This document shows positions 47,943 to 57,272 of a stretch of DNA of 64,000 nucleotides, piece by piece (positions within the stretch are counted from its first letter, which is position 1; each line of letters starts with the position of its first letter). This DNA comes from Escherichia coli (GTDB lineage Bacteria; Pseudomonadota; Gammaproteobacteria; Enterobacterales; Enterobacteriaceae). The translations under genes were made by a program, and so were the position numbers. The stretch is taken from NCBI RefSeq assembly GCF_030013595.1, contig NZ_CP122768.1. One strand, 5' to 3'. The notes beneath the pieces are model-generated. The model was given only the letters and a program-made list of their open reading frames with translations, had not been told where the DNA came from and did no database searches.

Positions 47943-49325
47943 ATGGCTAGTTGGCAACAAGGAATCAACTCAGGCGGCTTTCTTGCTGGTATCGGTGGGC
48001 AAAACTCAAATGCGCCAAAGGCAAGTGATGTAAGTGAGGCGTTGGCCTATATTCGCCAGAACAACGAAATGGAGCGCTCAGGTCGCAATAACATCGGCCT
48101 TCAGGCGTTGCAGGGGCTTGGTAGTGTCGCTCAAACATATCAAGCCGCAAAGCAACAGGAATTCCAAAAAGAATATGCGGCAGCCATCCAGTCAGGTGAT
48201 CGGCAGCAGGTGCGAGATCTGATGACCAAATATCCTGGTCAATTAGAGAAGATTCAGTCTGGTATGAAGTGGGCAGACGAAGACCAGCGCAATTCTATCG
48301 GCACCTTAGCGGCTGGCGCACGCCTTGCGTCATCGTCTCCAGAAGCAATGCAATCATGGCTGCAAAACAACGCCAAGGAACTGGCGCGCGTCGGTGTTGA
48401 CCCTAACAGCGTTGCTCAGATGTATCAGCAAAACCCTTCAGGATTTGGTGAGTTTGTTGATCACCTTGGAATGGCTGCTCTTGGTCCGATTGATTACTTC
48501 AATGTTCAGGACAAGATGGCTGGTCGTGAAATTGACCGAGGCAAACTGGCAGAGACAATCCGCAGCAATCAGGCTGGCGAGGCGCTAACAGCACGAGGCC
48601 AGAACATCACGATGCGCGGTCAGGACTTATCTGCTTCTACTGCGCGACGAGGTCAGGATTTGGCAATGCAGCGAGCGTCAACAAGACGAATCGCTGGGAA
48701 TGATGAGCGTACAGTTCAGTTATCAGATGGCAGAACTGTAACGGTAGGCGGGAAGCTTCACGGCGCTGGGGCTAATGCGTTCTACGAAGGCATCGACAAC
48801 GAGGGGAATATGGTTCGCGTCCCTGCTGGCTCTATTGCCGCTCCGGCTACATCGGCAGCAAGCGCGCAGAATTACGCAATGAAGAAAGATCTTGATGCAA
48901 TTTCTGGTGCATCAATTGACGATCTTGGCTTCATGACTGGCATTACAGGCTCTTCAGGTTCTCCTGCTCTTGGTGCAGATATTCGTAGCCGTGCATCTGG
49001 TGGTGATCAGAGGAAACTATACAACGCTGCACAGCGAATCCAAGGAAAGATGCAGAATCAGGGCATTGCAGCAGCCAGAGACATGGGGGCATCCGGTATC
49101 AACACCGTTGCAGAAGCAAAGATGTATTTTCAAGGTATGCCACAGGTTGATTTCTCAAGCCCTGAAGCACTGCAACAATCAATGCGCGACATTCAGCAAT
49201 ATACCGACAATTACAACCAGCAATATAACGTTAATGTTGGTAAATCTCAGCGGCAGCAATCTCAACCTGCACAGGTATCACAGCCAGCAGCCAGCAGTAA
49301 CTTTTCTTCACTATGGGGTGATTAA
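47943..49325 (+). CDS. Ejection protein (P22 gp20-like)
   Basis: 460 aa, positional. Confidence 0.55.
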
Positions 49326-51430
49326 TGGCTAAAGCATGGAAAGATGTTATCGCTTCTCCACAGTATCAGGCGTTAGCACCAGAACAAAAAGCGCAGGCTC
49401 AGGAGCAATACTTCAATGAAGTCGTGGCCCCGCAAGCCGGAGAAAGTGTAGAGCAGGCTAAGCAGGCTTTTTATGCTGCCTATCCACTACCATCAACGAA
49501 TGAAATAGACCGATACCAATCAGCAACTCAAAATATTCAACATACATCATCTGATAATTCTCTTGCGTCAGGGTATGCAAAGTTAGCTACTCAGCAAAGA
49601 GAGGGGCTTGAGCGTTCAGCAGAACAGGGAGCCAGTCTTGGGGCTGCGATGCGCGATGCTATAACAGGCGAAAGCCGAATGACTCCAGAGATGGAGAGAC
49701 TGCAAAATGTCGACCTTGCCCCAGAGTTAACCTCACTCAGCATGGATGCTCTAAAAGCTCGATGGTCTCAACTTTTCGGCTCTGACGCATCTCAGGAAAA
49801 GATTCTTCAGAGCATGGGAGCGAAATTAAGGCAGGATGAGAAGGGGAACACTATCGTTTCCCTGCCATCCGGTGATTATGCTCTGAACAAGCCGGGTTTA
49901 TCGCCGCAAGACGTGGCATCGTTTCTGGCTAATGCGCTGGCGTTTACACCAGCGGGCAGGGCTGGAACGGTGCTTGGTGCCATAGGAAAATCAGCAGCTA
50001 CAGATTTAGCACTACAGGGAGCCACCAGCCTTGCTGGTGGAGAAGATATTGATCCGTTACAAACGGTAATTTCTGCTGGCATTGGTGGTATTGGTAAGGG
50101 GCTGGAAAATACAGCGAGTGCGGTTTCGAGGGCTGTTCGTGGTGATATGTCGCCTGAAGCAAAGGCTGCTGTCGACTTTGCATCGGAAAGAAATCTGCCG
50201 TTAATGACCAGTGACATGCTGAAAGATAAAACCTTTATGCAGAGTCAGGCTCAGACATTAGGCGAAAGAGTTCCTTTTTTTGGAACCGGTAAGAATCGGC
50301 TGAATCAACAACAAGCACGAGAAAATTTAGTCAGAACATTTAGCGATGGTCTGGGTGGTATTTCTGATAAACAGCTTTATGAATCTGCGACTAAAGGGCA
50401 ACAAAAATTCATTGAGGCAGCAGGAAAGCGATATAACCGCATAATTGACGCTATGGGGGATACCCCTGTCGATCTCTCAAACACGGTAAAAGCTATCGAC
50501 AATCAGATTGCCGTGTTAAGCCGCCCGGGCAAATCTCAGGATAGAGCCGCGGTAAAAGTCTTGCAGCAATTTAAAGACGATATCACCAGCGGGCCAAATG
50601 ACCTGCGTCTGGCGAGGGAAAACAGAACCGATCTTCGAAAGCGATTTATGGCGTCATCTGACACTGTTGATAAAGATACGCTCCAGAAAGCCAGCGATAT
50701 TATCTACAAGGCATATACGGCGGATATGAAAAAAGCCGTAGCCAAAAATCTTGGAGCAGACGAAGCCATTAATATGGCAAGGGTTGATCGCTCATGGTCT
50801 AAATTCAATGACATGATGGGAAGAACGCGCGTTCAAAAGGCAATAGCCAGCGGCAAGGCCACGCCTGAGGATGTAACAAAACTCGTTTTTAGCCAAAGCC
50901 CATCAGAACGTTCTCAGCTTTACAGGCTTCTGGATGACAATGGTAGGCAAAACGCACGAGCAGCCATAGTTCAGAATGCTGTAGATAAGGCGACTGATCC
51001 GTCTGGAAATATCAGTGTTGAGAAGTTTATTAATGCGTTACACCGGAACAGGAAGCAATCAGCAACTTTCTTTAAAGGCGTACATGGAAAGGAACTGGAC
51101 GGCGTTATTAAATACCTCAACGATACAAGACACGCGGCAAAAGCGAACGTTCAAAACTTAAATGGTCAGCAGCTTTATGGATTGTTAGTTGGTGGTGGCA
51201 TCATAAACGCAGCAGTATTAGCGGGGATGCTAAAAACGGCTGCGTTTGTTGTTCCTGCTGCTGGTGCCGTAGGCGGAGCAGCGAAGGCATACGAAAGCCC
51301 TGTTATACGAAATGCCTTGTTACGTCTGGCAAATACGCCAAAAGGTAGCACAGCATATGACAGAGCGATCAGTACGGTCACACAATCGCTCACCAGAGTC
51401 GCACAGGCATCACAAAAAGAAGCTCAATAA
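49325..51430 (+). CDS. Ejection protein (P22 gp16-like)
   Basis: 701 aa with hydrophobic C-terminal segments; last gene of the ejection-protein block. Confidence 0.6.
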   Translation: MAKAWKDVIASPQYQALAPEQKAQAQEQYFNEVVAPQAGESVEQAKQAFYAAYPLPSTNEIDRYQSATQNIQHTSSDNSLASGYAKLATQQREGLERSAEQGASLGAAMRDAITGESRMTPEMERLQNVDLAPELTSLSMDALKARWSQLFGSDASQEKILQSMGAKLRQDEKGNTIVSLPSGDYALNKPGLSPQDVASFLANALAFTPAGRAGTVLGAIGKSAATDLALQGATSLAGGEDIDPLQTVISAGIGGIGKGLENTASAVSRAVRGDMSPEAKAAVDFASERNLPLMTSDMLKDKTFMQSQAQTLGERVPFFGTGKNRLNQQQARENLVRTFSDGLGGISDKQLYESATKGQQKFIEAAGKRYNRIIDAMGDTPVDLSNTVKAIDNQIAVLSRPGKSQDRAAVKVLQQFKDDITSGPNDLRLARENRTDLRKRFMASSDTVDKDTLQKASDIIYKAYTADMKKAVAKNLGADEAINMARVDRSWSKFNDMMGRTRVQKAIASGKATPEDVTKLVFSQSPSERSQLYRLLDDNGRQNARAAIVQNAVDKATDPSGNISVEKFINALHRNRKQSATFFKGVHGKELDGVIKYLNDTRHAAKANVQNLNGQQLYGLLVGGGIINAAVLAGMLKTAAFVVPAAGAVGGAAKAYESPVIRNALLRLANTPKGSTAYDRAISTVTQSLTRVAQASQKEAQ

Positions 51431-51448
51431 CTGGTTAGCCATGGATGG

Positions 51449-51637
51449 TTATTTCCTTAGCACATGAAACAATGTTTGCTTTAATTCCACCCATACAATT
51501 ATGACCACTATAGACAGACAAAAGAAACTGAATGCATTGGCATCACGATCGAAACCTTCTCCGGCACTAAATCCGTAAAAGGTCATAAAAAATATAAAAA
51601 TTGCGCACTTTGCAACGTTTACAAATTTTTTCTTCAC
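51449..51637 (-). CDS. Small hydrophobic membrane protein (62 aa, two predicted TM helices), antisense to the tail operon
   Basis: GTG start 5 nt after a perfect AAGGAGG SD on the minus strand; strongly hydrophobic translation. Confidence 0.5.
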   Translation of the reverse strand: MKKKFVNVAKCAIFIFFMTFYGFSAGEGFDRDANAFSFFCLSIVVIIVWVELKQTLFHVLRK

Positions 51638-52011
51638 ACCAACCTCCTTAGTTTTGCTCAGGATACCAGATGATACTTTATTGGTGGAGTGGTGTGTGAA
51701 AACGTGTCAACGACAAACCATCCACAACTTGGACGAATGATTTAGCAAAAAGTGCTATTTTTGGTGTTTAGTGTCATAGAAAAGTGAATAGCTCACTTTT
51801 CAACATTGCATGAAACTTGCAGGAAATGTGACATTACCTTATAGGTAATTTCGGCGAAAATGCAGTAAATGTGAAACGTAATGGTTTAAACATGTCGCTA
51901 AAGTGGTTGTAAGTTAGCCTCCGAAGGATTGCTGATAGCTTTGTTATAGTATTAAATGACATTTGACATAGTTGGATACTTAGCTGTGGCTATCAAGATG
52001 GAGGTGTGTTC

Positions 52012-52455
52012 ATGCTTACTTGTTTTGATGTCGCCGACTACTTCCTGTCGCGGTGTGACGAGGATAGCGGTGACACAATCTCTAATTTAAAATTACAAAA
52101 GCTTGTTTACTATGCTCAGGGGTTTTCATTGGCGTTGCTTGGTGAGCCTCTTTTTCAGAATAAGATGGAAGCTTGGATGCATGGCCCTGTTGTCCCTGAG
52201 CTTTATCGCCGTTATAAACAATATGGTAATGGAGCTATCCCTTCTCCAGAGTCTTTTGATGCTGAAAAATTCAGCGAAGAACAGTTAGAGCTATTAGAAG
52301 AAGTCTGGGATGTTTTTGGGCAATTTTCTGCCTGGAAACTGAGGAACATGACACACGAAGAGTCACCATGGAGATCAAACTATATTGAGGGTGTTGGTGG
52401 TTCTGAAATTAGCTCTAAGGAGATGGCAGAGTACTTTGCAACTCGGATTAACTAA
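52012..52455 (+). CDS. Panacea/DUF4065-like (SocA/GepA-type) protein, putative antitoxin-type component
   Basis: MLTCFDVADYFLSRC...NLKLQKLVYYAQGFSLALLGEPLF...AWMHGPVVPELY matches the recalled DUF4065 signature; GAGGTG SD upstream. Confidence 0.55.
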   Translation: MLTCFDVADYFLSRCDEDSGDTISNLKLQKLVYYAQGFSLALLGEPLFQNKMEAWMHGPVVPELYRRYKQYGNGAIPSPESFDAEKFSEEQLELLEEVWDVFGQFSAWKLRNMTHEESPWRSNYIEGVGGSEISSKEMAEYFATRIN

Positions 52456-52459
52456 CGAG

Positions 52460-52879
52460 ATGGCAAGAAAATCTAAAAGGATTATCCCCCCTGCTGAATC
52501 TACAGGTAAGTTAAAGTTAGGGCCGCAGTCAGGGGGGAATTCAGATCAAAAGAAACCGAAATTTTCATTCTGTTACATCCAAAGCTCTCACTGCATAACG
52601 AAATGCCAAAAAGATGAGAAAGCTGGCTTAGCTGATAAATTATACAGATTAAGTCAACTAACATGGGCAGAGATTAAGCAGCAAGGTAGGCATAAGCTTG
52701 GATTTGAGAAGATTGCAAGGGGTGCAATTAAAGCTGGTATCCCCGGTCATATAACGGAAGACGTAGATCATTTCTTGGCTTTTAGATTTGATGATTTGAA
52801 AGCCATGGTTGGTTATCGTCTTGGATCGACATTTTTTGTTATATGGCTTGATAGAGAGTTCAACCTATACAAGCACTAA
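52460..52879 (+). CDS. Unknown partner protein (139 aa), translationally coupled to the Panacea-like gene; candidate toxin/effector
   Basis: ATG 4 bp after the upstream stop; basic N-terminus, Cys/His cluster, C-terminal ...GYRLGSTFFVIWLDREFNLYKH; strong terminator follows. Confidence 0.5.
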   Translation: MARKSKRIIPPAESTGKLKLGPQSGGNSDQKKPKFSFCYIQSSHCITKCQKDEKAGLADKLYRLSQLTWAEIKQQGRHKLGFEKIARGAIKAGIPGHITEDVDHFLAFRFDDLKAMVGYRLGSTFFVIWLDREFNLYKH

Positions 52880-52881
52880 TA

Positions 52882-52908
52882 AAACCCACCGTCAGGTGGG
52901 TTTTTTTG
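52882..52908 (+). terminator. Rho-independent terminator ending the two-gene operon
   Basis: cccacc-gtca-ggtggg hairpin followed by TTTTTTT. Confidence 0.75.
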
Positions 52909-52923
52909 TTGGAGATAAAATGG

Positions 52924-53127
52924 TTAACCAAATCGATCCTTAAAGCGTCTATCGCTGTTGCGTCTCTCCATTTTACTGTTGCAGTACGGACAAAGATGCT
53001 GTTTCTTTCCATCGATAGTCCATGTGAAGTACTTTTTCTTAAATCCAGCACCACAGATATCGCAACTTCTTGGTTTAAACATACTGGCTATGAAGATAAG
53101 AACAACAAATCCTATGATCCATTCCAT
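52924..53127 (-). CDS. Small membrane-anchored zinc-ribbon protein (67 aa)
   Basis: N-terminal TM helix MEWIIGFVVLIFIASMF followed by CDICG...CPYC zinc-ribbon pattern. Confidence 0.35.
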   Translation of the reverse strand: MEWIIGFVVLIFIASMFKPRSCDICGAGFKKKYFTWTIDGKKQHLCPYCNSKMERRNSDRRFKDRFG

Positions 53128-53268
53128 ATCATGTACCTGTTTTAACTTTATTTTTTGATTTTTAGGGATTAATCAGAAACTTTATCTTGCGATTAAGCAA
53201 AGCTACTAGCTAACAAAAGAGTGCGTATACAATCAATCGTTTCACATCAACCTCAACAAGGAGAAATC

Positions 53269-53454
53269 ATGACCATAGAAGAACGCCTGAACAACATTGA
53301 GTTGAACCAAACCCTGCTTGACCAGCGACTTTCAGATCTTGAGCTTAAAGATCTGGATGCGCAAATATCAGAAGCAGAAGCCAAGCTCTCCAGCTTAAAC
53401 CACCGCAAGAAGCAAATCCGCAACAGAATTACTCAGGGACGCGGAAGCCGTTGA
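53269..53454 (+). CDS. Small coiled-coil protein (61 aa)
   Basis: ATG preceded by AAGGAG SD at ideal spacing; heptad-like MTIEERLNNIELNQTLLDQRLSDLELKDLDAQISEAEAKL. Confidence 0.4.
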   Translation: MTIEERLNNIELNQTLLDQRLSDLELKDLDAQISEAEAKLSSLNHRKKQIRNRITQGRGSR

Positions 53455-53463
53455 AATCCTAGT

Positions 53464-53781
53464 CTATTTTTTCTCAGAGCTCATATTGTAATAGGTGGTA
53501 TAAATAGAGATTGATTTCTGACATGCTTCAAGAAATTGCTGCGGAGTCATCCCGAGCCTTGCTTGCTCTGTAGTAAGGAATCTCTGTAAGAATTCATTCC
53601 CACCTGGCATGTTTGTAGATTCTTGGAATATTGCCATTTGTTTGATTGCACCACACATACCAGCCATTTTAGAAGCTATCATGAGGCCTTGTATTTCATC
53701 AAAACTGCTATCGTCTGATTTTGTTTCTGCGTTAGCTATGCTCGAGAGACACAGGAGCAATAGGATAGCGATACGTTTCAT
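53464..53781 (-). CDS. Secreted/periplasmic protein (105 aa, cleavable signal peptide), co-transcribed with the mnt-like gene
   Basis: MKRIAILLLLCLSSIANA signal sequence; start overlaps the mnt-like stop (ATGA). Confidence 0.5.
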   Translation of the reverse strand: MKRIAILLLLCLSSIANAETKSDDSSFDEIQGLMIASKMAGMCGAIKQMAIFQESTNMPGGNEFLQRFLTTEQARLGMTPQQFLEACQKSISIYTTYYNMSSEKK

Positions 53782-54029
53782 TTTTCACCATTGCCATGCA
53801 TACATTTTAACTTCTCAACATCATGCTCAAGCTCTATCAGTCGCGATGCTATAGTTGCAAGATCTAGTGCTTGAATGTGTTTGTTTTTTTCGGTCCATGC
53901 TTCAAGTGCTGCGACCATCTCAGCATTTAATGAACGAGAATTAGCCTCAGCCAGTTCAATAAGACGTTCCTTTATCTCTACAGGAAGCCTCAGATTCACT
54001 TGAGGGTTTTTGTACTTACGATCAGACAT
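53778..54029 (-). CDS. Mnt-like ribbon-helix-helix repressor (Arc/MetJ family)
   Basis: 83 aa; N-terminal ...NLRLPVEIKERLIELAEANSRSLNAEMVAALEAW RHH fold; divergent from the arc/ant pair as in P22 immI. Confidence 0.7.
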   Translation of the reverse strand: MSDRKYKNPQVNLRLPVEIKERLIELAEANSRSLNAEMVAALEAWTEKNKHIQALDLATIASRLIELEHDVEKLKCMHGNGEK

Positions 54030-54104
54030 CGGCGCATCCTGAATAATTTTTTACCACAGGATATGTAGGTATCTATTGACTATCAATGCGTACCTAAATA
54101 CTAT

Positions 54105-54121
54105 GTATGCGTACCACATAC
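54105..54121. promoter_or_regulatory. Candidate operator: imperfect palindrome GTATGCGTACCACATAC with ATGCGTACC repeated 21 bp upstream
   Basis: In the divergent mnt-like/arc-like intergenic region, just upstream of the arc-like start. Confidence 0.4.
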
Positions 54122-54133
54122 AAAGGAGCAAAA

Positions 54134-54280
54134 ATGAAAGTTAAGACATTAAGGATGCCAGAATGGCTGGAAAAGGCTTTGGAGCAGTCCGCGAAAAAGG
54201 ATGATCGGTCGTTCAGTAATGAGGTATTGAGGAGACTAAAGGAGTCAGTAGCTAAGGATGGAATTGTTTGTCCAGAATGA
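54134..54280 (+). CDS. Arc-like ribbon-helix-helix repressor (48 aa; below ORF-track cutoff)
   Basis: Manual translation MKVKTLRMPEWLEKALEQSAKKDDRSFSNEVLRRLKESVAKDGIVCPE; GGAG SD upstream; precedes the ant-like gene. Confidence 0.55.
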   Translation: MKVKTLRMPEWLEKALEQSAKKDDRSFSNEVLRRLKESVAKDGIVCPE

Positions 54281-54346: not shown

Positions 54347-55276
54347 ATGAAAAGTATAGCAACAGCAGTATCTACTATCAACGTGCCATTCCACGGCGCA
54401 GAGCTTTATGTCGTCAATCACAACGGTGAGCCGTACACCCCAATGAAACCTATCGTTGAAGGTATGGGTATGGATTGGGCTTCACAGTTTACGAAAATAA
54501 AGCAACGGTTTAAAACCTCCATTGTGAAAATCACAATGCAGCTTCCTGGTGATGAACAGTGCCGTGAGATTATTTGTTTGGCACTTCGCAAACTTGCTGG
54601 CTGGCTGCAAACCATCAGTCCAAACAAAGTCCGCCCTGAAATCCGCGACAAGGTAATCCAGTATCAGGAAGAGTGTGACGATGTGCTATACGAGTACTGG
54701 ACTAAAGGCCATGTAGTTAACCCACGCAAAGCTAAAAAGGCGTTGCCGGGTAAAATCACCACTGAACAGCAGGAAGCCATTAAACAACTCGTCATGAGTC
54801 GCGGTCAGTCTCTGCCAAAAGAAAAACAGGCTAAGGCGATGATCACCATGTGGTCGTCACTGAAATCCCATTTTGGATGTTCGTACAAAGAAATCAGTGA
54901 GGAGCAGTTTACCGAAGCACTGTCACTTGCTGCTCGAGTTCCACTTGAAGGTGAGTTCATTGGCAAACAAGAGAAGAAAACCAACGAGCTTTCTGCAAAA
55001 GAAGCAAACAGCCTTGTATGGCTCTGGGATTATGCTAACCGTTCACAGGCATTATTCCGCGAATTGTATCCGGCGCTAAAACAAATTCAATCGAACTATT
55101 CCGGCAGATGCTACGACTACGGTCATGAATTCTCGTATGTTATCGGAATGGCGAGAGACGTTTTAATCAATCACACACGAGATGTTGATATTAATGAGCC
55201 AGACGGACCAACGAATCTTTCCGCATGGATGAGACTTAAGAATAAAGAATTACCTCCTTCAGTACATAACTACTGA
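54347..55276 (+). CDS. Antirepressor (Ant-like)
   Basis: 309-aa ORF following the arc-like gene, in the position of P22 ant. Confidence 0.6.
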
Positions 55277-55376: not shown

Positions 55377-57272
55377 ATGACAGACATTACAGCCAATGTG
55401 ATCGTATCGATGCCTTCGCAACTCTTCACTATGGCGCGTTCTTTTAAAGCCGTAGCCAATGGCAAAATTTATATAGGGAAAATTGACACTGACCCGGTAA
55501 ATCCTGAAAACCAGATTCAGGTTTATGTGGAGAATGAAGATGGCTCTCACGTTCCTGTTTCGCAACCAATAATCATTAACGCTGCCGGATATCCGGTATA
55601 TAACGGACAGATTGCCAAGTTCGTAACTGTGCAAGGCCATTCTATGGCTGTTTATGATGCGTATGGGGCGCAGCAGTTCTATTTTCCTAATGTGCTGAAG
55701 TATGACCCTGACCAATTAAGACAGGAGCTATCTAAGCAGACTGATGGTTATTTTTTTAACCTTCCTCAAGGTGGTGTACTACATGATGCAATAAAGTATG
55801 TAACACCAGAAATGTATATCAATACATCTTCAGATATTACATCTGCTATACAAAGTGCATTTGACAATGGAAATGTGATTGATATGTCAGGTAGAGACTG
55901 GACTCTTGAGAGAACAATCCATGTCGGTGATGGCACTGAAATAAAGTTAGGCGCATCAACAATTACATGTCAACTTGGTTCTAAACCTGCTTTTGACTTT
56001 AGAGGAACAGATAAAGGACTCCTGGTCACAGGAGGTAAGTTTATTGGTAATTGCTCTGCAGTATTTTATTTCCAAGGGACTACTGCTTTCCCTTCTCAAT
56101 CAGGTCACTATGCAAGAAAAATAAGAATATACGGCACAGATGCTACTTCAGATACGGATGAGATAATTGATTTCATCTATATGAAGGACGCTGTAAGGCA
56201 AGTTTTTATTGATTCATGTTATGCATATGTAAAAAACGGCATTACTGCAAGCGGGAAATGTGTGGAGGTGAAAGTCCAAAAAAGCATATTCAACTCAGGA
56301 ACTTCCGATCAAAGTTCTTCTAGGATAAGTCTAAATTCACCGTCAGGAGCAAGTTATTACAACGAAGGTTGGCATTTTAGTGATTGTACAATTGATGGAG
56401 TTGGAAAATCATTTAATGTTACCGATATATATTCGTTAACCATCAATGGAGGATTTATCGGTGGTGAGGTTGCGTTTGGACAGCCAATAACAACACATTG
56501 CCGTGAGATCGTACTCGGTGGTGGATTAATCATGAAAGGGCGTGTTACTTTCACGCCAACCGTACAATATGACTACAGGGCCAACATATCTCCTTCTCTT
56601 ATGTTTGGTAATGGTGGAGTTGGAAACGTGGTCCTTAATGCAGGTGCTTCAGGCATCAACGTTAGCACAAAACTTGAAAGTTCTGGTGTTTCAGGAGGAA
56701 CTGGCGTTATTGTTAATGAAGGATGTTCTAATGTTAACGTTGACCTGAGCGCTGATAATACGTATGAAAGACTGGCGTCATTCAATGGTTACGGACCAAG
56801 GTGTTCCGCTTTGATACGTAACTACATGGGAAGCTCTCACCCAATTTATACAGAGCGACCATTAAAGATTATATCATCGCCTGTCACTGACGACGCTGGT
56901 TCTCTGCAGGTTATGAGTTTTGTAAATATACCAGCAGGAAGCTATATTGTTGGTTCTGTTATGTCTGAGGTGAAAGTGACTGCACCAAAAGGTTCTAGAG
57001 GGAAAATTTCTCTTACCATTTCACTGAGTGGATTAACAGGCACATCTTCACAGGCGCTTATTGTAAATATTCCTGCCGGAATGGTTACCCCATCCGGTTT
57101 AGGTTGGGCTTCAAATGTTATTAGACCTCAGTTTGCGGCTGGAATAATGAGTATTGAAATACCATTTTATACAACCACAGACATTGCAGAATCCTCATTA
57201 TCTGTATCTAATTTCTCAGGAAATACAGCAATTGTTGGACTAAACTCTTACATTGGATATTTTTTGATATGA
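55377..57272 (+). CDS. Tailspike protein: conserved P22/Sf6/HK620-type head-binding domain + divergent beta-helix receptor-binding domain
   Basis: N-terminal ~113 aa [60 protein letters not shown]...VLKYDPDQ; remainder Gly/Ser/Thr/Asn-rich and repetitive. Confidence 0.85.

Follow-up and report, generated by a model that had tools for sequence, protein, structure and literature searches.

A repressor gene whose last bases double as the first bases of a gene for a small secreted protein raises the question of why a prophage should tie an exported product to the maintenance of lysogeny. Such a pair lies in a stretch of 64,000 nucleotides of Escherichia coli DNA (NCBI RefSeq assembly GCF_030013595.1, contig NZ_CP122768.1), referred to here as the window, which contains a P22-like (Lederbergvirus-type) prophage within the E. 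coli chromosome. A gene for an 83-residue Mnt-like ribbon-helix-helix repressor (53778..54029, minus strand) is followed by an open reading frame (ORF) for a protein of 105 residues, termed ORF105 (53464..53781, minus strand; RefSeq hypothetical protein WP_000820796.1), which starts with MKRIAILLLLCLSSIANA. The sequence-only reading of the locus took ORF105 for a periplasmic protein co-transcribed with the repressor, and suggested for it a role in superinfection exclusion or envelope modification. Here, we report that ORF105 is a real gene under purifying selection, that it is arranged with mnt as one translationally coupled unit, and that its product belongs to a large family of predicted exported three-helix proteins. 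A role in superinfection exclusion or envelope protection is plausible as a hypothesis.

Coupling of ORF105 to the mnt-like gene

The repressor itself is readily assigned. Its sequence matches the Pfam family Arc (PF03869) over residues 7-50 (E = 3.9e-10) and falls into phrog_795, and its N-terminal ribbon-helix-helix region is 42% identical to residues 5-40 of P22 Mnt (E = 5e-11), a protein that is likewise 83 residues long; RefSeq labels it 'Arc family DNA-binding protein'. This profile match, together with immI synteny that includes candidate overlapping divergent promoters and a palindrome, places it among the Arc/Mnt repressors. In the databases, both phrog_795 and P22 Mnt itself (NC_002371) are labelled 'partition protein ATPase'. 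The label is wrong, P22 Mnt being a ribbon-helix-helix repressor of 83 residues, and automatic annotation of Mnt-like genes may take it over.

On the minus strand, the mnt-like gene ends with GGT GAA AAA TGA, and ORF105 begins in the overlapping frame with ATG AAA CGT, so that the mnt stop TGA and the ORF105 start ATG share the four bases ATGA at 53778..53781, just as had been read from the letters at the outset. A Shine-Dalgarno-like motif, GGTGA, precedes the ATG. The four-base overlap is kept in 27 of the 27 related loci in which a Mnt-type gene stands directly before the ORF; these loci comprise three ORF105 lineages (100%, 72% and 65% amino acid identity) and several Mnt alleles of 78-85 residues. 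Of 5426 complete E. coli genomes, 53 carry the ORF105 gene, one of them being that of O104:H4 strain 2011C-3493, and, among the matches listed from these 53 genomes, an annotated Arc-family coding sequence lies under the ORF105-locus match in all 12. Since the overlap is invariant in the 27 loci and the Arc-family gene recurs in the matches listed, the coupling to mnt is conserved and selected rather than a product of chance.

A sequence scan found no promoter-like or terminator-like site between mnt and ORF105. Among the marks of a moron, an independent transcription unit inserted in a phage operon, ORF105 shows variable presence among relatives; the scan gave it neither a promoter nor a terminator of its own, and it uses the mnt unit. 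The two genes are thus arranged as one translationally coupled unit, and their co-expression is well supported by this arrangement. Of the earlier proposal of co-transcription, the one-unit gene arrangement and the uninterrupted junction stand, while transcription itself is something we infer from them.

The region upstream of mnt offers a candidate start for this unit. A consensus scan placed a candidate Pmnt, TTGATA-17-TATCCT, at 54058..54086 on the minus strand, with 9 of 12 matches and at a position that mirrors the annotated Pmnt of P22; promoter-like sites are no more numerous here than expected from shuffled sequence, so the candidate is singled out by its position only. On the plus strand, a candidate Pant for the arc-like gene and ant, TTGACT-17-TACTAT (54076..54104), has a -35 hexamer that overlaps the -35 hexamer of Pmnt, as Pant and Pmnt overlap in P22, and the promoter-like hexamers of both directions overlap at 54076-54086. 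An imperfect inverted repeat with 18-nucleotide arms of 78% complementarity (54062..54100) is centred on the overlapping -35 hexamers and, by comparison with the annotated Omnt and Oarc of P22, is a candidate Mnt/Arc operator.

ORF105 and its protein family

The signal sequence claimed for the 105-residue protein bears every sequence hallmark of an exported periplasmic protein. We read it from the sequence itself together with the family-wide conservation of a leader. Residues 1-18, MKRIAILLLLCLSSIANA (53728..53781, minus strand), divide into MKR / IAILLLLCLSSIA / A-N-A, then E, that is, a positively charged n-region, a hydrophobic core of 13 residues and a predicted signal peptidase I cut after ANA, which provides the small residues at -3 and -1. 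There is no later transmembrane segment, as would be expected of a substrate of signal peptidase I exported by Sec, and no lipobox (LLLC, then LSSIANA). For the homologue in phage Kapi1 (47% identity), the DeepTMHMM annotation gives residues 1-22 as signal. Export of ORF105 by Sec is well supported by these features.

The mature domain of 87 residues and the stop codon occupy 53464..53727 on the minus strand. ORF105 matches phrog_19844, which bears the PHROG label 'unknown function', over its full length (E = 1e-69). Against the orthologues of 72% and 65% amino acid identity from E. coli and Citrobacter freundii prophages, for which synonymous sites are saturated (synonymous divergence, dS, of 1.1-2.9), the ratio of nonsynonymous to synonymous divergence (dN/dS) is 0.09-0.15 for the whole gene and 0.04-0.08 for the mature core. 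ORF105 is a real gene under purifying selection.

An exhaustive profile search with a cut-off of E <= 1e-3 collected at least 261 clusters formed at 50% identity, of which 178 reach E <= 1e-10, and almost all members are about 100 residues long. The family ranges over Gamma- and Betaproteobacteria with one Acidobacteria genome, and relatives in the AlphaFold DB come from Salmonella, Vibrio, Yersinia, Morganella, Gallionella, Pseudoalteromonas, Halioglobus and Proteus. Matches in AFDB50 are uncharacterised family members only. One of these entries is labelled DUF3015; this assignment (PF11220) was rejected, as the label stands on one AlphaFold DB entry only and neither ORF105 nor any of the 130 aligned members has a Pfam match at E <= 0.001. 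Searches of the literature turned up nothing on the ORF105 protein accession, on its PHROG or on the Kapi1 locus tag.

Conservation was counted in an alignment of 130 members, namely ORF105 and 129 relatives. All 129 relatives have an N-terminal hydrophobic segment, the leader sequence itself being unconserved, and lipobox-like strings occur in only 6 of the 129. Both cysteines, which are Cys43 and Cys87 in ORF105 (codons 53653-53655 and 53521-53523), are kept in 128 of the 130, which speaks indirectly for an oxidising compartment, where a Cys43-Cys87 disulfide would form. The invariant or nearly invariant positions are K38, G41, C43, G44, F52, Q53, T56, G60, G61, F64, R67, F68, E72, R75, C87 and Y94, within which a conserved cap, F52-Q53-x-x-T56-x-M-x-G60-G61-x-x-F64-x-x-R67-F68, stands out.

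Structure prediction, which had been suggested as a check on the locus, gave a confidently predicted three-helix bundle but no informative match to solved structures. The AlphaFold model built with the family alignment has a predicted local distance difference test (pLDDT) score of 92.8 and consists of a long helix (mature residues 7-38), a short one (43-58) and a second long one (62-85), which are amphipathic or soluble. Conservation mapped on this model is strongest at the end of helix 1, in the GG loop and at the start of helix 2. In a crude helical-wheel analysis helix 1 is hydrophobic almost all round, and two relatives, P0026 (202 residues) and P0150 (174 residues), are tandem duplications of the domain; both features suggest that single-domain members may act as dimers.

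The genomic placements of the family were drawn, for P22-like prophages, from 45 IMG/VR viral loci and further genome loci; a scan of genome contigs with a narrow pattern yielded 10 loci. P22-like prophages carry the gene in two places. It stands either directly after mnt, often followed by a 161-residue lipoprotein gene (phrog_6067) or a SieA-like gene (phrog_7745, PF26849), or next to gene 16, as in Kapi1. The slot to the left of mnt is occupied in relatives by the lipoproteins phrog_6067 and phrog_6823, by SieA-like phrog_7745 and by small membrane proteins. Two viral contigs whose flanks are not P22-like carry a member of 53-60% identity 92 bases downstream of a gene for a 142-residue Mnt-like protein, which is itself divergent from an arc-ant pair.

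Beyond these phages, the family is found on a broad set of elements. Pseudomonas-type prophages carry a member between the recombination genes and the repressor, by CsrA, a toxin-antitoxin pair and RelA_SpoT/SLATT genes. On the chromosome of Pseudomonas nitroreducens (L072, 3128-8303) the carrier is an island with an integrase and a resolvase. A CBASS-type CD-NTase/Cap15 pair, an HSDR_N protein and DUF6602 are encoded there within a few genes of the family member, a context that resembles a defence island. Further members sit in a P4-like satellite of Limnobaculum and in a decayed prophage remnant of Yersinia aleksiciae. In a Methylophaga sp. scaffold (L074, 6022-9700), the family gene is the second cassette of a chromosomal integron: the integrase IntI scores 427 bits against TIGR02249 (cut-off 265), and attC-like sites of the form TAACAAG...GCGTTAR bound each ORF, so that the gene qualifies as an integron gene cassette. 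Its cassette neighbours encode a TPR protein and an Excalibur-domain protein, with a ParE/ParD pair further along; no Rfam family matched when this integron region was scanned. Only 2 of 50,697 GenBank phage records carry a family member, and none was found among PLSDB plasmids. Outside the P22-like group, no neighbouring gene family recurs. Given this spread over element types with no recurrent partner, the gene behaves as self-sufficient mobile cargo.

Candidate roles of ORF105

The following course of events would connect these features. The Mnt-side promoter of immI, which in P22 is active in the lysogen, would transcribe mnt and ORF105 as one leftward unit, and ribosomes ending translation of mnt would restart on ORF105 through the ATGA overlap. 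The 105-residue precursor would be exported by Sec and cut after Ala18, and the 87-residue mature protein, with ETKSDD as its expected N-terminus, would form a compact three-helix bundle in the periplasm, locked by a Cys43-Cys87 disulfide. It would act alone, as a lysogenic-conversion (moron) product with no partner gene. Its invariant helix-loop-helix cap (FQxxTxMxGGxEFxxRF with K38, E72 and R75) would most likely bind a conserved component that lies in the periplasm or crosses the envelope, and the protein would thereby protect the lysogen envelope from phage DNA entry or from a lytic or antibacterial enzyme. We offer this explanation tentatively, as quite possible and short of probable. Contextual support for protection would come from the position in the slot of P22 sieA (PMC10883804), from the envelope proteins that fill this slot in relatives and from the defence-type cargo near members elsewhere.

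Several observations weigh against this account. Lysogens of the related phage Kapi1 gave no detected mnt transcripts (PMC12922286), so activity of the Mnt-side promoter in the prophage is not to be assumed; the ORF105-family member of Kapi1, which is not adjacent to mnt, is absent from the list of undetected genes (PMC12922286). No intrinsic terminator is evident downstream of ORF105. In the databases searched, no exclusion or defence protein already known is homologous to ORF105: it has no match in NCBIfam or PADLOC-DB v2 (0 PADLOC families), sequence searches of the PDB with two profiles returned noise only, and the folds in the PDB gave no informative match to the confident model, nor any below E = 1 in Foldseek with an earlier, poor model (pLDDT 70). 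An ORF105-family gene coexists with a SieA-like gene in close relatives, for example in Citrobacter, so ORF105 is not simply a substitute for SieA. The crude helical wheel puts several of the invariant polar residues on a buried face, and these may therefore be structural rather than part of a binding site. Finally, the very strong conservation across taxa is unusual for exclusion proteins aimed at fast-evolving phage parts. This conservation, which holds over distant Proteobacteria and over types of element, suits a conserved host target or a ligand, or a generic target, better than one specific to a phage or to P22.

The same conservation would suit a protein that serves the fitness of the host rather than its defence, whether as a binder of a small ligand, a stress chaperone or a modulator of a conserved envelope pathway such as metal handling or envelope-stress signalling, to the benefit of the lysogen in its niche. 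Distant taxa share an extremely conserved core in which K, Q, T, E and R residues are invariant, and some of the invariant polar residues appear to face the interior, as they would in a ligand pocket. The first helix is rich in Met, many integron cassettes encode secreted niche-adaptive proteins as a matter of general background, and the tandem duplications in P0026 and P0150 suggest a dimer, as in small periplasmic chaperones. This explanation has to contend with the lack of any His- or Cys-rich motif in ORF105 and with the repeated placement of the family in accessory slots beside defence-type cargo and exclusion genes, and we consider it doubtful, if still worth serious attention.

A narrower alternative, which is a special case of envelope protection, makes ORF105 an orphan inhibitor or immunity protein whose conserved loop enters the active site of a periplasmic peptidoglycan hydrolase. 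Virion lysins, amidase or glycosidase effectors of the type VI secretion system, toxins of the colicin M or pesticin type, and host lysozyme would be the class of targets. The most conserved stretch of the family is the helix-loop-helix cap with its GG(D/N)EF loop, which recalls the loops that known proteinaceous inhibitors of lysozyme insert; a conserved enzyme as target would explain the conservation of the family, and the gene is single-gene mobile cargo with no partner. A cognate toxin, however, is never adjacent in the survey of neighbours, and blocking enzymes of the T4 lysozyme type could disturb the prophage's own lysis, which leaves this an unlikely explanation. Far less likely still, and in our judgement highly improbable, is a lytic-cycle or regulatory role that serves the phage rather than the lysogen, through lysis timing or envelope remodelling. 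ORF105 does lie inside the late-region ant moron, and sieA of P22 is reported to be up-regulated on induction (PMC10883804); against this, ORF105 is coupled to a maintenance repressor and is transcribed from the other strand than the late operon, and its family also has members on carriers that have no lytic cycle, namely integron cassettes, a satellite, an island and a decayed prophage remnant.

To return to protection of the lysogen envelope by a periplasmic binder, the explanation can be widened to the family as a whole. Its members might constitute an uncatalogued form of single-gene periplasmic defence, spread by prophages, satellites, islands and integron cassettes. As three-helix 'plugs', each locked by a disulfide, they would bind a conserved component of the host or the invader and so stop phage DNA at a conserved stage of its passage through the envelope, or stop toxins that act in the periplasm; in P22-like prophages the gene would have been wired to Mnt so that every lysogen is protected. 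We regard this wider proposal as rather unlikely. That prophage genes expressed with the lysogeny repressors can supply exclusion and defence functions is proven by examples such as rex, sieA and gtr, and, to our knowledge, there are very few soluble periplasmic proteins that block on their own, of which T4 Spackle is the textbook case. If ORF105 does block phage entry or periplasmic toxins, it would be an envelope defence of a new kind, and one that is easily transferred; some of the integron and prophage-moron cargo now listed as 'unknown' would then be explained. Should it not serve defence, the locus is still a clean case of translational coupling of cargo to Mnt in a P22-like ant moron. 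The family itself is passed on as a self-contained gene among all the major types of mobile element.

The surrounding ant moron and its known counterparts

The immI-type region of the window is flanked by a gene-16 homologue (49325-51430) and the tailspike gene (55377-57272). To the right of the latter, the sequence is that of the E. coli region intS-yfdC-mlaA-fadL. The area around the mnt-like/ORF105 pair is 99.9% identical to E. coli UMNF18. Divergent from the pair on the minus strand, the plus strand carries the Arc-like repressor gene (54134..54280), whose RefSeq homologue in UMNF18 is 147 bp long with a 48-residue product, and the antirepressor gene ant (54347..55276; phrog_245, E = 6e-98; RefSeq 'phage antirepressor Ant'). 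The mechanical ORF of the Arc-like gene begins at 54107, and its likely start is the ATG at 54134, which follows AAGGAG.

To the left, ORF105 converges with a plus-strand gene for a 61-residue coiled-coil protein (53269..53454; phrog_7586), the Kapi1 homologue of which is annotated with an XhlA motif. The two stop codons are 9 bases apart, so any read-through of the mnt transcript would be antisense to the 61-residue gene, and no terminator-like structure was found between them. Further along on the mnt strand, an ORF of 67 residues (52924..53127, minus strand), with an N-terminal transmembrane segment, a CxxC...CxxC pattern and weak matches to phrog_3794 and zinc-ribbon-like NCBIfam models, may be the distal and last member of the leftward transcription unit. 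It finishes just ahead of a symmetrical structure of A-run, hairpin and T-run (52881..52904), a terminator-like match on the plus strand whose symmetry makes it a candidate bidirectional terminator for the leftward unit and for the rightward gene pair beyond. That pair comprises a gene with a Panacea (SocA-like antitoxin) domain (52006-52455, plus strand) and, starting 4 bases after it, a gene for a 139-residue protein (52460-52879, plus strand; phrog_8366), which has a weak PADLOC NsnC match (E = 1.4e-5) and no Pfam match. It looks like a PanA-type toxin-antitoxin or defence pair, fills the space held by sieA in P22 and is closed by the hairpin at 52881-52904.

Directly after the gene-16 homologue lies a gene for a small membrane protein of 62 residues (51449-51637, minus strand; phrog_21338). 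Related prophages show at this slot a conserved upstream leader (in frame, ...KTKEVGVK) before interchangeable cargo, all of which bears signal peptides or transmembrane segments and which in Kapi1-like phages is the ORF105-family member. An apparent second paralogue beside gene 16 in several loci was rejected as a clustering artefact caused by this shared upstream leader being read in frame; a hidden Markov model scan found one family member only in the window. The combination of cargo over 51400-54100 is found at 80% or more query coverage in 1 of 5426 complete E. coli genomes and in pieces in 550, which illustrates the cassette-like mosaicism of the ant moron region.

The nearest counterpart of this locus is immI, or the ant moron, of P22 itself. 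Both lie between gene 16 and the tailspike gene, and both have divergent Mnt- and Arc-type repressors, ant, and leftward genes after mnt; the P22 record confirms that this is the place of the sieA and immI functions, as the sequence-only reading had held. Its further statement that mnt stands alone in P22 does not survive, since the record puts the mnt terminator after orf59a. That gene lies 99 bases after mnt and encodes a cytoplasmic-looking, non-secreted product of 59 residues, in contrast to the 4-base overlap and the exported product here, and sieA of P22 has a separate promoter. The gene content of the ant moron varies in P22-like phages, some of which have mnt with a gene of unknown function (PMC2629481). 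No sieA was found within the window, where the Panacea-domain pair occupies its space. SieA resembles ORF105 in its genomic slot, in its presumed expression in the prophage and, if ORF105 acts as proposed, in working at the envelope (PMC10883804), but it is an inner-membrane protein with three transmembrane segments and no signal sequence (PMC10883804), whereas ORF105 is predicted to be soluble and exported. Membership of the SieA family (phrog_7745/PF26849) was rejected: ORF105 matched only phrog_19844 and no Pfam family, and P22 SieA matched phrog_7745 at 9e-109.

The best functional analogy for ORF105 is T4 Spackle (gp61.3), which is likewise a small phage protein (97 residues) with a signal peptide. 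Spackle is a periplasmic inhibitor of the gp5 tail lysozyme, and acts alone to exclude superinfecting phage. It has neither sequence nor fold similarity to ORF105, and membership of its family was rejected. Cor, Llp and Ltp are also prophage-encoded envelope proteins with N-terminal export signals, which block phage entry; ORF105 was not assigned to these exclusion lipoproteins, as it has no lipobox, only 6 of its 129 relatives have lipobox-like strings and no PHROG relation was found. For the genetic arrangement, the model is lambda rexAB, protective genes that are co-transcribed with the repressor cI and hence made only and always in the lysogen. Genes 44/45 of phage epsilon34 have been likened to rexAB (PMC2629481). 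The Rex proteins differ from the present case in being cytoplasmic or membrane proteins of abortive infection, whereas here a secondary repressor, Mnt, is joined to a predicted periplasmic product. Cargo that encodes a prophage envelope protein and is expressed with a lysogeny repressor is thus already known in kind. What the present locus adds is the tight translational coupling of such cargo to Mnt, the placement of ORF105 in a large, uncatalogued and confidently foldable family of predicted exported three-helix proteins, and the spread of this family over prophages, satellites, islands and integron cassettes.

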